A stretch of DNA of 64,000 nucleotides from Minisyncoccota bacterium (GCA_041389065.1 JAWKSM010000001.1:80320-144319); one strand, 5' to 3'; counted from the first letter of the stretch, positions 29,584 through 35,486 are shown. Notes: a model not told the origin generated them from the sequence alone. Numbers and translations are program-made.

Positions 29584-29629
29584 ACACTTTTGAGAACTTG
29601 AAGCCATTCGAGTTTTCAAAGAGTGGAAA
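29584..29629 (+). promoter_or_regulatory. conserved dyad/stem-loop motif, copy A (CACTTTTGAGAA-N19-TTTTCAAAGAGTGGAAA)
   Basis: One of four near-identical copies, each between a terminator hairpin and the next start codon. Confidence 0.6.
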
Positions 29630-30468
29630 TTATAGATAAAAATAATGAAAACAAATATACAAAAGAAAAACTTGTTATTATTACCGGAATTACTGGCGCT
29701 ATTGGAAATGCTTTTTTGGCAAAATATTCCAGAGAAGAAAATACTGCAATTTGTGGCATTAGTCGTAAAGCAGAAGATGTTTCGAGTTTTATAAACCCAG
29801 AAAATAATAAATTTTTCCCTGCAACTTTTATTGCTAACCTTGGAGATCTAACAGAACAAAACATTAAAAGTTTTGCGGAGAAAATAAATTACAATGAATT
29901 TGAATCTGCCACATATGTTCACGGGCTCGGATTATATCCTTTTGAAATAAACAAGATTGGGTCACATGTCGTCGAAAACGACAAAGATGGAGATGGTATA
30001 AACGATACGGTTTTGGAGCTTTCCCATAGAGTATTTAAATTCTTTGTTGAAAATCTTTCAAAGAACTCTATAAATTCTGGAGCAAAATTTGCTTCTGTGA
30101 TATTTGGAGGAATTGCAGATGTTCACAAACCACTGGCTCACCAGTCTTGGTGGAGAGTTATGGGAATGACCAAAGACTATATGAAAAAACAAAAAGATAA
30201 TATTGGAATGAACTTGATCAATATATCTTCGGTTGTTTGCAGTCATGAAATTATTACAAGGCCGCACGTGTTTACTCAAACAGACGCTGATTTGAAATAT
30301 TGGTTACTTCCACACGAAATACCAGATAGATTTTTCGCTGAAAATGAAAATATGTTTTCTGGGTATCACGAATATGAATTTTTTCATATTCGACCAAATT
30401 TCGATCCAAACTATTATGAAAACTTTAAATTTACACCAAGAAAAGTAAAAGAGATTTTTCATAAATAA
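29623..30468 (+). CDS. SDR / NAD(P)-dependent epimerase-dehydratase family oxidoreductase; probable ATG at 29645 with a homopolymer frameshift
   Basis: Rossmann motif LVIITGITGAIGNAF. The track ORF starts at a GTG inside the motif; the ATG at 29645 plus one extra A in the A5 run (29666..29670) gives MKTNIQKKKLVIITG... Confidence 0.65.
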   Translation: MEIIDKNNENKYTKEKLVIITGITGAIGNAFLAKYSREENTAICGISRKAEDVSSFINPENNKFFPATFIANLGDLTEQNIKSFAEKINYNEFESATYVHGLGLYPFEINKIGSHVVENDKDGDGINDTVLELSHRVFKFFVENLSKNSINSGAKFASVIFGGIADVHKPLAHQSWWRVMGMTKDYMKKQKDNIGMNLINISSVVCSHEIITRPHVFTQTDADLKYWLLPHEIPDRFFAENENMFSGYHEYEFFHIRPNFDPNYYENFKFTPRKVKEIFHK

Positions 30469-30503
30469 CAAAAAACCGCCAAAGGCGGCTTTTTGTTTTG
30501 TTT

Positions 30504-30704
30504 TTAGTTCCACTCGTCTGGATTGTATCCACCACTGTAGTCGTCATCTTCCATATCTTCGTCATCCAAATCAAGTTCTTCGTCTTCCATATCTTCGTCA
30601 TCCAAATCAAGTTCTTCGTCTTCCATAGAATCCTCGCCCATCATCAGGTCGTCGTCTAGTTCACTCGCAAATAAATCTTCTCCAATTAAATCATCGTGTC
30701 CCAT
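30504..30704 (-). CDS. small highly acidic repeat protein (Asp/Glu-rich)
   Basis: MGHDDLIGEDLFASELDDDLMMGEDSMEDEELDLDDEDMEDEELDLDDEDMEDDDYSGGYNPDEWN; a 45-bp tandem DNA repeat encodes EDMEDEELDLDD twice. Confidence 0.5.
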   Translation of the reverse strand: MGHDDLIGEDLFASELDDDLMMGEDSMEDEELDLDDEDMEDEELDLDDEDMEDDDYSGGYNPDEWN

Positions 30705-30820
30705 GTTCTAAAAAATTTATTATTATAATTACGATATTTTTATCAGAAAGAATTTTCTTTTGCAATAGGCTTATTGTTTTTGTGTGGAAATTAAAATCTT
30801 AAGTATGTTATGTTTATAGT

Positions 30821-31213
30821 ATGGAAAATAAAGACTATAAAAAATGGTTAGATAATAAATCTTTTATACATAATAAAAAACAAAGACCTTTCTTTCATGA
30901 AAGAGAAATATGGTTTTGTTCCTTGGGGTCAAATGTTGGTTTTGAGCAAGATGGTCGAGGTGAAAAATATTTAAGACCTGTAGTTGTGATCAGAAAATTT
31001 AATAATGAAATTTGTCTTATTGTTCCTCTAACAAAAAATAAAAAGAAGGGAATTCACTACTTTAATTTTAAATATTTAGATGGTTTTATCAGTACTGCTA
31101 TACTTTCCCAAGTAAAATTAATCGACTCTAAAAGGTTTGAATATAAATCTGGGGACATTAAGGAAGGCGACTTTGTAAAGCTAAAAGAAAAACTCAGGCA
31201 ATTAATTGCCTGA
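30821..31213 (+). CDS. MazF/PemK-family endoribonuclease toxin-like protein (no adjacent antitoxin ORF seen)
   Basis: REIWFCSLGSNVGFEQDGRGEKYLRPVVVIRKFNNEICLIVPLTKNKKK matches the MazF/PemK core pattern. Confidence 0.55.
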   Translation: MENKDYKKWLDNKSFIHNKKQRPFFHEREIWFCSLGSNVGFEQDGRGEKYLRPVVVIRKFNNEICLIVPLTKNKKKGIHYFNFKYLDGFISTAILSQVKLIDSKRFEYKSGDIKEGDFVKLKEKLRQLIA

Positions 31214-31296
31214 GTTTTTCTTTTACCCTCTTTCGAGGGAGGGCCGAAGCCATTTGTACCTATATCTTATAATATTTAGAAAAAAAGTCAAGTAAA

Positions 31297-31776
31297 TTAA
31301 AATCTTTCGTAGGCAAAACAGGTGATTCCGACCGCTATTGCGTCGATTTCATCATCTTGTTTCAGCTCTTTCGGTATCTCAACAAGTTTGTGAACCATTG
31401 TGTGAATTGCGTCTTTTGTTGCTTTTCCGTAACCAGTCACCGCAGACTTTATCTGAAGTGGGGTGTATTCAAAAATTTCTAAATCAAAACTTTTTGCCAC
31501 GTAGAGAATAGCGCCACGAGCTTCGGCCACACCCATTGCTGTTTTTGCATTGTTTTCGAAATAGAGTTTTTCAATCGCGAGCGCTTCCGGCGAGAATTTT
31601 TTAATCGTTTCTTCAATTTCTTTTCCAATGAGAAAGACCCGCTCGGTAAGAGGAAGTTTTGAAGATGTTTTGAAGCAAGTTGAGTGCAGTACTGTCTCGC
31701 GTCTATCTCCACGATTTTTCTCCAAAACCGCAATTCCTACACGCTCATATCCAGGATCGATGCTGATGATTTTCAT
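31297..31776 (-). CDS. ruvC: crossover junction endodeoxyribonuclease RuvC
   Basis: MKIISIDPGYERVGIAVLE... RNase H-like fold with catalytic D/E positions. Confidence 0.9.
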   Translation of the reverse strand: MKIISIDPGYERVGIAVLEKNRGDRRETVLHSTCFKTSSKLPLTERVFLIGKEIEETIKKFSPEALAIEKLYFENNAKTAMGVAEARGAILYVAKSFDLEIFEYTPLQIKSAVTGYGKATKDAIHTMVHKLVEIPKELKQDDEIDAIAVGITCFAYERF

Positions 31777-31797
31777 AATTGGATTATATTAAAGTAT

Positions 31798-34029: not shown

Positions 34030-34062
34030 AGTTCATTCACATAACAAACAACCCCCAACCAT

Positions 34063-34633
34063 GAACAAGCTTTCAATCGACACTAGCCACGGCATCAAGG
34101 AAATGATCGCCGCTGGTCGATTTGATCGTATTGAAGTGGTTGCAAAACACTTCTTCATTAGCGATCGGAGTCGCTACACGGTGACCCCAAAGATCTTTGG
34201 TTTTGATACCGATATCTCTTCGGAGATGGTTATCAAAAACATGGCATCGGAAGGTTTTCGACCGGCCAAGTTTGAGGAGCTTCTGGCTTATGCGGAAGTT
34301 TCCAATAGCACTGAGTCTAAGACCGCTCTAGTGGCACTGGGATCAACCCTTGAAGTTTCAGAAGTTGGTGGCATGAAGATACCATCTATGTTTCTTCAAA
34401 CCAAGGCAGTGCGTTCCAGTATGCAAGAGCTTCTGGCTTATGCGGATGTCAGCGCTGTTAAGGGTTTTGAGAGCGCGGTGGTAGAGCTTGTGTCCAAGCT
34501 GAAACCCAGAGAAGCTGGTGTGACACTTGTTTCATACGCTATTCTCCAAAAGAACGCGCGACGCCTTTACGTCAGCCCGTTCGCTGGAGGGTGGTGGCGT
34601 GGAATGAGCTTTCTCGGTGTCAAAGACATCTGA
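34063..34633 (+). CDS. hypothetical protein, unknown family (paralog of 29108..29539) with an internal duplication; GC-rich
   Basis: Start MNKLSIDTSHGIKEMIAAG; duplicated ELLAYA(E/D)VS blocks; ends FLGVKDI like its paralog (FLGVREVQPKS). Confidence 0.5.
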
Positions 34634-34650
34634 GGTACATGAAGAAGTTT

Positions 34651-34671
34651 GAGCCGACACATCGTCGGCTC
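34651..34671 (+). terminator. terminator hairpin (GAGCCGAC-ACAT-CGTCGGCTC) preceding motif copy C
   Basis: Near-identical to the hairpin at 29562..29583, including the upstream TACATGAAGAA. Confidence 0.55.
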
Positions 34672-34715
34672 CAATTTTGAGAATTTGAAGTGATTCGAAT
34701 TTTCAAAGATTGGAA
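34672..34715 (+). promoter_or_regulatory. conserved dyad/stem-loop motif, copy C
   Basis: CAATTTTGAGAATTTGAAGTGATTCGAATTTTCAAAGATTGGAAT. Confidence 0.6.
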
Positions 34716-34727
34716 TAAATTAAATAT

Positions 34728-35411
34728 ATGAAAAATAATAAAATATTAATTTTAGGAGGAACATCTGGAATCGGATTCCAGACAGCGAAAAGACTATCAA
34801 AAGATAATGAGGTTATTGTTGTTGGTAGAAATGAAAACAAAGGATCTCTTGCCTCTGTATTTGGAAGTATTGAATTTATACAATGCGATATTTCTAAAAA
34901 CAAAGAAAGAAAAGAGTTGGTTAGAAAACTAGAAAAATATAATATTTCAAAAATAATACATTGTGCTGGAATCTTTTCTAAAGATAAAACAAAAGAATAT
35001 AAAAAACTATATAAAGAAATAAAACTGGGCGGGGTTCAAATAATAAAAGATTTGCTTAAAACAAATAATGTGAGCCATGTTTGTGCAGTGGGATCTCTAT
35101 ATACTTTTCTTCCTGAGAATAAAGATTATTCGTTTGAAAAACAGGTGCACGAAAAACTTGAAAATGATTTTATGAAAATAAAAGCCAAAAACGTGTTTAT
35201 TAATTGTGTTGCTCCTGGCTTGGTTGATACAGGTCTTTCAAGAGAGGGTTTCGGTAAAAAATTTATTCAGGTTTTAAAAAATTCTCCAGGAAGTCGAGTT
35301 TTAGAACCAGAAGAAGTTGCCGAATCTATTTTCTGGCTGGTAAATCAAAACGTAATTAATAATATGGTTATACCAATAGACGGAGGTTATTTGAGAAATT
35401 TGAAAAAATAA
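34728..35411 (+). CDS. short-chain dehydrogenase/reductase (SDR) family oxidoreductase
   Basis: MKNNKILILGGTSGIGFQTAKRL Rossmann motif; 227 aa. Confidence 0.75.
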   Translation: MKNNKILILGGTSGIGFQTAKRLSKDNEVIVVGRNENKGSLASVFGSIEFIQCDISKNKERKELVRKLEKYNISKIIHCAGIFSKDKTKEYKKLYKEIKLGGVQIIKDLLKTNNVSHVCAVGSLYTFLPENKDYSFEKQVHEKLENDFMKIKAKNVFINCVAPGLVDTGLSREGFGKKFIQVLKNSPGSRVLEPEEVAESIFWLVNQNVINNMVIPIDGGYLRNLKK

Positions 35412-35440
35412 TAAAGCGTAGCCCTGTTTTTTACAGGGCT

Positions 35441-35486
35441 CCACTTTTGAGGATTTCACAGAGGTGGAATTTTCAAAGAGTGGAAA
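35441..35486 (+). promoter_or_regulatory. conserved dyad/stem-loop motif, copy D
   Basis: CCACTTTTGAGGATTTCACAGAGGTGGAATTTTCAAAGAGTGGAAA, preceded by the GTAGCCCTG-TTTTTT-ACAGGGCT hairpin. Confidence 0.6.

Follow-up and report, generated by a model that had tools for sequence, protein, structure and literature searches.

A covarying intercistronic hairpin and its possible roles in mosaic accessory operons of Patescibacteria

Background

A stretch of 64,000 nucleotides from a Minisyncoccota bacterium (positions 80320-144319 of contig JAWKSM010000001.1, assembly GCA_041389065.1; the whole stretch is called the window) carries two short operons, or arrays, in which the same hairpin recurs between successive genes. 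The locus raises the question of what such an element does there, and whether it acts in the RNA, in the DNA, or in both. Patescibacteria (candidate phyla radiation, CPR) have tiny genomes, few of them have been cultured, and little is known about how they regulate their genes. The hairpin is previously undescribed and constitutes a structured intercistronic repeat without an Rfam family: Rfam 15 yields only tRNAs at the gathering threshold, a permissive scan of 28900-36000 gives no match overlapping any copy, and literature searches for the motif sequence and for intergenic or intercistronic elements of Saccharibacteria or Patescibacteria return nothing relevant. An initial annotation, made from the DNA sequence, had placed four copies of a dyad between terminator hairpins and the start codons of accessory genes, and had read it as either a structured cis-regulatory RNA or a dyad operator.

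A covarying hairpin in four copies

The copies start at 29584, 33984, 34671, and 35441, all on the plus strand, and the window contains no others; the initial annotation had located all four, with the third at 34672. Their spacing is identical (TTTTGAG-N18-TTTTCAAAGA[G/T]TGG). Chance is ruled out for this motif, because shuffling puts the expected number of full-pattern matches at 0.00. Of the 16-nt right arm, the 64 kb contain three exact occurrences and one with a single mismatch, all at the four copy sites, and a covariance model built from the family of related copies (R1) retrieves the four copies and nothing else from the window, with scores of 68-74 bits and E values of about 1e-15:

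29584-29628, plus strand: hairpin copy 1, 19-bp stem, loop GCCA, between the F10-167 open reading frame (ORF) and a short-chain dehydrogenase (SDR)-like ORF; 71.5 bits; -20.2 kcal/mol in sense versus -10.9 kcal/mol in antisense
33984-34028, plus strand: hairpin copy 2, loop GAAA, between the PALP ORF and the F10-190 ORF; 74.1 bits
34671-34715, plus strand: hairpin copy 3, loop GUGA, lower stem with a compensatory CCAAU/AUUGG variant; 70.4 bits
35441-35485, plus strand: hairpin copy 4, loop AGAG, between the SDR ORF and a lipoprotein ORF; 68.0 bits

An assembly artefact is unlikely in the window, as exact repeats between the four copies measure about 20 nt or less and copies 2-4 recur in the same order and arrangement in three independent metagenome assemblies (L001-L003).

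All copies of the family share a common fold of -16 to -24 kcal/mol, in which a 4-nt loop caps a 19-bp stem with a single purine bulged out on the 3' side. Standard pairs occupy 96% of the cells in the 32 sequences used for pair counts, and 34-65% once the 3' partner is slid by 1-3 columns, although many copies are kin by descent and such cell counts, like the loop counts given below, overstate the number of independent events. Six pairs show changes on both sides (e.g., CG17/UA8/AU5, GC16/CG6/AU5/UA2, and AU19/CG7/GC3), and copy 3 contains one double change in the lower stem, from C-G to A-U. In 500 shuffles, neither the covariation score nor the paired fraction of the real alignment is ever reached. 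Sequence is almost unchanged along the lower stem (CCACUUUUGAG / UUUUCAAAGAGUGG) and variable along the upper stem, the two stem arms being the only conserved blocks of the motif; as had been noticed at the outset, the inner 18 nt differ between copies and compensatory changes preserve the stem.

The pairing is strand-specific. Wobbles are fixed at three positions (G·U in all 32 sequences, U·G in 31, and U·G in 27), and two further positions switch between Watson-Crick and wobble (C-G in 17 and U·G in 13; A-U in 24 and G·U in 8), with 3-5 G·U pairs per hairpin. L168 has G·U instead of G-C as the basal pair of the conserved core. On the opposite strand, both the fixed and the alternating wobble positions would become A·C mismatches. 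Among the 31 copies used for strand and loop comparison, the mean fold energy is -19.8 kcal/mol in sense versus -8.9 kcal/mol in antisense, the sense strand being more stable in every one (31/31), and the loops are of the GNRA type in 16 and UUCG in two. This comparative evidence shows that folding of the hairpin in the sense strand is under selection, and it indicates a transcribed RNA. Together with the operon-internal position, such selection implies folding in polycistronic mRNA. The pair counts and the strand comparison thus support the first half of the initial proposal, a structured element with covariation on the sense strand that is common to accessory genes.

Host operons

The two arrays and their divergent neighbours comprise the following features (GC3, GC content at third codon positions):

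28089-28943, minus strand: F3, TrmBL2-like winged-helix protein, divergent from array 1
29108-29539, plus strand: ORF F10-167, first gene of array 1, with an alternative TTG start at 29036; GC3 0.46; family related to variable proteins of diversity-generating retroelements (DGRs)
29623-30468, plus strand: F4, SDR-like ORF, last gene of array 1, with a Rossmann GxxGxxG motif and no Pfam match; GC3 0.24
30476-30498, plus strand: canonical terminator, end of array 1
31798-32556, minus strand: F1, TrmB-family regulator with a Pfam TrmB domain, best PDB match TrmBL2, divergent from array 2
32668-32696, plus strand: strong sigma-70-type promoter of array 2, TTGACA-17-TATGAT with TG
32784-33875, plus strand: pyridoxal phosphate (PLP)-dependent enzyme (PALP), first gene of array 2; GC3 0.61
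34061-34633, plus strand: ORF F10-190, paralogue of ORF 29108-29539; GC3 0.50
34728-35411, plus strand: F7, short-chain dehydrogenase with a Pfam match; GC3 0.19
35525-35890, plus strand: 121-aa lipoprotein-like ORF with a lipobox, last gene of array 2; GC3 0.53
35911-35945, plus strand: canonical terminator, end of array 2

Every family copy examined (33) lies in sense orientation between co-directional ORFs. In the window, the hairpin ends 12-39 nt upstream of the next ATG, in agreement with the placement just before accessory genes first described, and the downstream genes are those then named (SDR-like, paralogue of ORF 29108-29539, SDR with a Pfam match, and lipobox ORF). The notion of a co-regulated gene set holds insofar as the genes share operons; they are not independent units, the copies being intercistronic. 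Almost every array is divergent from an F1 or F3 gene. In L018 (4300-6052, minus strand), the array opens with a Ro60 (TROVE + vWA) gene, and a hairpin copy follows it directly; bacterial Ro60 genes usually have a Y-RNA gene nearby.

The reading frame of F4 deserves a separate remark. Within 29645-29700, an A-run is 5 nt long versus 6 nt in the near-identical L004, and the frame opened by the ATG at 29645 ends after 49 codons; the long frame is kept only by the GTG at 29623, which lies inside the 3' arm of copy 1. The difference in the A-run could be a sequencing error, a pseudogene, or slippage.

The junction module

The hairpin is the core of a junction module, which spans 94-185 nt from stop to start codon in the four cases of the window. 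Its parts follow a set order: the end of the upstream ORF with its final codons and stop, a purine-rich 3' untranslated region (3'UTR), a variable GC-rich hairpin, the 19-bp hairpin, an A- or CA-rich leader lacking a Shine-Dalgarno (SD) sequence, and the ATG. The GC-rich hairpins of the window are located as follows:

29561-29584, plus strand: GC-rich hairpin 1, UAGCCGACGA-UCAG-UCGUCGGCUA, abutting copy 1
33963-33983, plus strand: GC-rich hairpin 2, abutting copy 2
34653-34669, plus strand: GC-rich hairpin 3, upstream of copy 3
35420-35440, plus strand: GC-rich hairpin 4, abutting copy 4

Such a hairpin is 7-10 bp long, ends 0-1 nt upstream of the conserved one (as already observed for the window), and is free to vary in sequence with its pairing kept; it is found in nearly all family copies. 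Upstream of it runs a purine-rich RAAG... tract. The 108-nt 3'UTR that precedes copy 2 contains a small extra hairpin (33935-33951) and is conserved in L009, L025, L038, and L093. In many copies the stop codon sits in a small AGCU-GAAA-AGCU hairpin, and unrelated upstream proteins end in ...QPKS*, their last codons thus being supplied by the module. Downstream, up to the ATG, one of a few standard leaders is found (...ACGUACAUUCACAAAACAAAA..., ...GUUCUUUAAAAC..., or a short AT-rich stretch), the leader boxes standing at a variable 2-11 nt from the hairpin. Directly 3' of the 19-bp hairpin the sequence is AAA, not U.

Family and distribution

In a single scan of 185,579 species-representative genomes with the degenerate pattern, the motif was found in 11 contigs, always with a gap of 18 nt, from metagenome-assembled genomes (MAGs) labelled Candidatus Saccharibacteria or Patescibacteria; the other matches had different gap lengths, lay inside coding sequence, and did not fold. 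A metagenome scan added four contigs, and look-ups of flanking proteins two more. In total, the family comprises about 35 copies from roughly 15 related MAG or metagenome contigs, with 1-3 per 8-kb locus and up to six per MAG (L025, L030, and L033 together), and includes degenerate copies (L004 2757-2793, L093 311-358, and L038 6363-6413). It is drawn from MAGs and short contigs, with about 8 kb readable around each match, and mis-joins at near-identical junctions are possible in MAGs other than that of the window. The window contig itself is labelled 'Candidatus Paceibacterota' by NCBI, and its RuvC is 66-99% identical to those of the other motif-bearing genomes. The element is restricted to a narrow clade, since F3 homologues of at most 49% identity stand in contexts without the motif and one at 72% identity is accompanied by two copies. 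A phage origin was rejected: a scan of viral contigs gave three chance matches only, none of which forms a hairpin.

Exchange of ORFs between junctions

Alignments with relatives break at ORF boundaries but can be continued across the junctions. L004, with a RuvC of 99% identity, has two small ORFs in place of F10-167, and homology resumes at 29578. In L009, a second PALP gene takes the place of F10-190 (34061-34633) and an unrelated 219-aa ORF that of the last ORF, the alignment breaking at 34027/34028, 34642, and 35485. L038 has a 133-aa membrane ORF in place of F10-190, and the same ORF families appear in further orders in L038, L025, and L168; the orders seen include F20|F2, F20|66aa|F2, F20|F10-190|SDR, and PALP|F10-190|SDR. 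An 'empty' site is found in L009, where the F3 promoter runs straight into a methyltransferase gene, and 'filled' counterparts in L098 and L030, which hold two leader-ORF-3'UTR-hairpin units between the same -10 box and the same methyltransferase ATG. Base composition is mixed: along array 2, GC3 runs 0.61, 0.50, 0.19, 0.53, versus 0.25-0.45 in neighbouring core genes. These comparisons show that the ORFs between modules are exchanged among relatives like cassettes. Compared with L004, the window also has an insertion at 30801-31293 that contains a PemK/MazF-type toxin gene (30821-31213).

The junctions themselves are mosaic. Upstream module type, upper-stem allele, and leader type assort independently: the upper-stem allele AACUUGAAGCAAUUCGAG occurs with five different upstream modules, and the PALP-type upstream module carries five different upper stems. 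Between orthologous junctions of the window and L009, 9-11 of the 18 upper-stem positions differ, and the flanks are 82-88% identical. The degenerate copy of L004 (2757-2793) joins the 5' half of one allele to the 3' half of another, with a perfect 3' arm kept and the 5' arm lost. Because junction parts reassort and orthologous upper stems diverge, DNA exchange within junctions must be frequent, and is compatible with either site-specific or homologous recombination.

A possible role between cistrons

The host context bears on what the RNA fold might be for. An SD-like sequence precedes only 4 of 41 ORF starts in the window, and in many ORFs the ATG follows a TATAAT-like -10 box at a distance of 7-10 nt, pointing to widespread leaderless or near-leaderless mRNAs in this host. 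In a host without SD sequences and with many leaderless genes, internal cistrons therefore need another route to an accessible start.

We tentatively favour, at a confidence just short of even, the explanation that the element is an intercistronic RNA processing or stability signal, a form of punctuation, which doubles as a recombination joint. The two stacked hairpins would act after transcription, between cistrons. A protein would recognise the lower stem by its invariant sequence, its bulge, and its fixed G·U pairs, the simplest such recogniser being a ribonuclease specific for double strands or for structure. RNA ends would be created or protected in this way: a hairpin would remain as a cap at the 3' end of the upstream message, and the cistron that follows would be left with a leader that is defined, short, unstructured, and rich in A or CA. 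Being repeated and similar, the modules might also serve as joints where recombination reshuffles ORFs.

This proposal is in line with the maintenance of the hairpin, and of its nearly invariant lower stem, across genomes with RuvC 66-99% identical, and with the position of some downstream ATGs 0-7 nt past the hairpin or inside its 3' arm. A 19-bp stem with a stacked GC hairpin of 7-10 bp in an intercistronic position would also fit a candidate RNase III-type processing site. Several observations weigh on the other side. A stem of 19 bp lies at the lower limit for bacterial RNase III. The distance from hairpin to ATG ranges from 0 to 110 nt in the family, and hence no single leader geometry exists. 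The hairpin sequence would also fold as top-strand single-stranded DNA, and the divergence of upper stems between orthologous junctions fits DNA-level exchange more easily than RNA-level drift. The degenerate copy of L004 hints that the sequence of the 3' arm may matter alone. Finally, that RNA is processed at the junction is something we infer, and purely so, from the DNA sequence.

Alternative explanations

An unlikely alternative is an integron-like DNA recombination site, at which leader-ORF-3'UTR-hairpin units would be inserted, excised, and reshuffled behind a regulated promoter, through the folded single-stranded hairpin, by a recombinase encoded elsewhere. The ORF-precise replacements with alignable junctions, the spread of GC3 within one operon, the empty and filled arrangements, the recurrence of the same ORF families in different orders, the reassortment of module, upper stem, and leader, the junction-supplied ...QPKS* ends of unrelated ORFs, and the single orientation of all copies are what such a site would leave behind; in the window, moreover, the folding strand is the lagging-strand template, 8-15 kb from dnaA. 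However, no recombinase adjoins any array (no transposase or reverse transcriptase either, among the ORFs scanned; the Pfam scan covered part of the window ORFs), the flanking genes being TrmB-like. The sole tyrosine recombinase found in the window is an Xer-like gene 23 kb off. The junctions contain no RYYYAAC or GTTRRRY core and show no fixed crossover nucleotide, the GNRA and UUCG loops point to selection at the RNA level, and homologous recombination between similar junctions would yield the same mosaics.

Less probable still is a selfish or neutral palindrome of the REP/ERIC/MITE type, whose RNA fold and effects on genes would be incidental. The element is indeed an imperfect palindrome in transcribed intergenic regions of one narrow clade, with degenerate copies and mosaic junctions. 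Yet its copy number is low (four in 64 kb, all within 6 kb), and copies occur only in operons beside F1 or F3 genes, always in sense and always between ORFs. Neither target-site duplications nor terminal repeats are seen beyond the stem, and no transposase is found in the loci, among the ORFs scanned. The lower stem is invariant and its fixed wobbles are kept, whereas homogenisation by template switching would erase wobbles.

The third explanation, to which we give little credence, is a transcription attenuator, and it follows the suggestion in the initial annotation that the U-tract allows mutually exclusive terminator and alternative-stem folds. On this view, the GC hairpin together with CCACUUUU would terminate transcription leakily, and read-through into the next gene would be tuned by the partner that the U-tract takes, the RAAG tract upstream or the CAAAGAG arm downstream. 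Two possible partners of the U-tract do exist: the CUUUU tract can pair with the upstream RAAG tract in about 24 of 33 copies when the upstream RNA alone is present, that is, with the downstream arm absent. In PALP-type junctions, an upstream GUGG pairs with CCAC and thereby places UUUU directly behind a 12-bp stem, and genuine terminators of the host genome are likewise flanked by an A-tract and a U-tract (family D4). In the minimum-energy fold of the full junction, however, the GC hairpin and the 19-bp hairpin coexist. A standard terminator scan of the plus strand does not call the junction GC hairpins, and canonical terminators occur only at the array ends. Nor could the downstream arm decide termination: it is transcribed about 35 nt after the U-tract, too late for the polymerase concerned, which has passed the U-tract before the long hairpin is made. 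A domain for sensing a ligand or a protein is also lacking from the element, as is a match in Rfam.

A double-stranded DNA operator or roadblock for F1/F3, or an alternative-sigma promoter, is highly improbable: the lower-stem arms do form a conserved inverted repeat (CCACTTTTGA / TCAAAGAGTGG) and arrays almost always adjoin F1 or F3 genes, but covariation, fixed G·U pairs, C-G/U·G and A-U/G·U switches, and a bias towards GNRA and UUCG loops would be meaningless in duplex DNA, the R1 scan of the divergent promoter regions detects neither a copy nor a half-site, the same motif is flanked by F1 and by F3 although the two share no sequence relationship, and no -10-like hexamer stands at a fixed distance, host promoters being of the ordinary TTGACA/TATAAT type. 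The dyad operator of the initial annotation is accordingly abandoned, because selection on pairing acts on a single strand (antisense folds are 11 kcal/mol weaker). Copies 1, 2, and 4 carry no sigma-70 promoter, and one borderline 9/12 match (TTGGAA-18-AATAAT, 34710-34739) begins in the last bases of copy 3.

Comparison with known systems

By analogy, the element is probably closest in function to the REP/ERIC/Correia palindromes and the RNase III sites of phage T7, and in genetic behaviour it most resembles integron attC arrays. REP/BIME of Escherichia coli, ERIC of Yersinia, and the RNase III-processed Correia/NEMIS of Neisseria are palindromes thought to set the stability or processing of cistrons. 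Like them, the hairpin is an imperfect intergenic palindrome in operons that would fold in mRNA and, being repeated, could promote recombination. In contrast to them, it is present in few, clustered, and strictly sense copies, always comes together with a GC hairpin and a standard leader, occurs only in operons that have a link to TrmB-like genes, bounds exchangeable ORFs, and is unrelated in sequence. Membership in REP/BIME was rejected on account of the low copy number, the sense-only orientation, the lack of a GTAG head, and the lack of any RAYT or transposase among the ORFs scanned.

The early-gene RNase III hairpins of phage T7 (R0.3-R1.3) have internal loops and share little sequence. 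The common features are an intercistronic hairpin of about 20 bp and, as proposed here, a protective 3' hairpin upstream and a free leader downstream; the lower stem of the present element is, however, sequence-invariant with fixed wobbles, and its cleavage is a proposal. Intrinsic terminators resemble the junctions in the GC hairpin flanked by A-tract and U-tract, as in the genuine terminators of this genome, but the junction GC hairpins have CCAC or CUAC before UUUU, the U-tract stands 3-4 nt from the GC stem in most copies, and the 19-bp hairpin has no U-tract.

The likeness to integron attC sites and CALIN arrays (clusters of attC sites lacking integron-integrases) extends to unidirectional, promoterless ORF arrays of mixed composition behind one promoter. 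An imperfect hairpin after each ORF, with conserved outer arms, a variable but compensated centre, and an unpaired base, is also shared, as are the overlap of the site with the ORF 3' end and a cassette content that varies between close relatives. Unlike attC, the element folds best on the sense (top) rather than the bottom strand, forms a continuous 19-bp helix with a single bulge and no unpaired central spacer, has RNA-like loops, and includes the leader to the ATG in its conserved junction. An attC identity was rejected, since a regular-expression search finds no RYYYAAC (R'') or GTTRRRY (R') in the four window junctions and none is visible in 33 aligned copies. No IntI gene was found near the arrays among the array neighbours examined and the window ORFs covered by the Pfam scan, and tblastn with Xer-type recombinases finds only 5854-6825 in the window, 23 kb from the arrays, and nothing in 16 other loci.

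It is conceivable, although doubtful, that this Patescibacteria clade builds accessory operons from exchangeable ORF cassettes joined at the 19-bp hairpin, i.e., that it has a gene-capture platform free of IntI and attC beside TrmB-like regulators near the origin, with a junction that doubles as RNA punctuation. Were this so, the junction signal of the platform would let internal cistrons be expressed without SD sequences in a host with mostly leaderless mRNAs. The element adds a covariation-supported RNA structure absent from Rfam, is a candidate answer to how internal operon genes might be expressed in such a lineage, and flags a hypervariable region of small size where entire ORFs, very unlike in base composition, replace one another precisely between standard junctions. 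A recombination site would represent a second kind of cassette platform, independent of integrons; a processing site would be a natural intercistronic insulator.

Neighbouring genes and other features of the window

Besides TrmB-like genes, the neighbours of the arrays include ruvC, yebC, and a tyrosyl-tRNA synthetase (TyrRS)-like gene. F3 has no Pfam match, and its family comprises more than 120 clusters without a Pfam domain or name. The AlphaFold model of F3 (mean pLDDT 86) is matched by Foldseek to TrmBL2 over the full length (E 3e-6) and has a PLD-like C-terminal domain; the predicted fold thus resembles that of the archaeal chromatin protein TrmBL2, with a winged helix, a long helix, and a PLD-like C-domain without the HKD motif. 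Given this model and the missing HKD motif, a hidden recombinase or nuclease was rejected, and F3 is read as a regulator or chromatin-type protein. No sequence relation between F1 and F3 is detectable (hhalign probability 0.7%).

Other members of the small family to which the F10 ORFs (29108-29539 and 34061-34633) belong are variable proteins of DGRs (loci L157 10484-11070 and 11477-12466; L161 1339-2724). In L157, 20 positions distinguish the variable repeat at the 3' end of the gene from a template repeat close by, and 18 of these are adenines in the template; a reverse transcriptase gene adjoins the DGR target gene there, and so does a bAvd gene in L158 and L161. The DGR targets of these distant relatives (L157 9840-10003; L161 100-257) have a long structured 5' leader (z = -5.6) with a hairpin of about 23 bp and two UUCG-capped hairpins. 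The L157 hairpin scores 18 bits with R1, but its L161 counterpart has a different core, and it is regarded as a separate hairpin rather than a family member; the leader, only weakly like the window motif, seems to be conserved in its own right. A link between DGRs and the motif was rejected, as no reverse transcriptase is found in the window or the family loci, no template repeat turns up for the 3' ends of the F10 ORFs, and PALP and SDR genes are followed by the motif as well.

The hairpin arrays lie 8-15 kb from the likely replication origin, since dnaA (20502-21848), dnaN (22098-23195), and the minimum of the cumulative GC skew (near 18-19 kb) are located there; L162 shows the same neighbourhood. 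The distant relatives L164, L166, and L167 have, beside or near the F3 homologue, a gene with which the Xer-type gene at 5854-6825 shares 69% identity.

Elsewhere in the window, the tRNA that ARAGORN calls at 1254-1327 on the minus strand is given no identity and has an abnormal anticodon loop ('ca'); Rfam scores it as a normal tRNA (61.8 bits). The 638-codon ORF at 40056-41972 has a GC content of 48-55% (host mean 36%), no Pfam match, and a canonical promoter at 40085, and contains two tandem 131-nt units, 100% identical, at 41622-41887. A second island of raised GC content (42-49%) at 9000-12000 contains short ORFs without Pfam matches and an NYN-domain gene (10803-11726), each gene being preceded by a canonical promoter of one repeated type (CTTGACAAATAT...).

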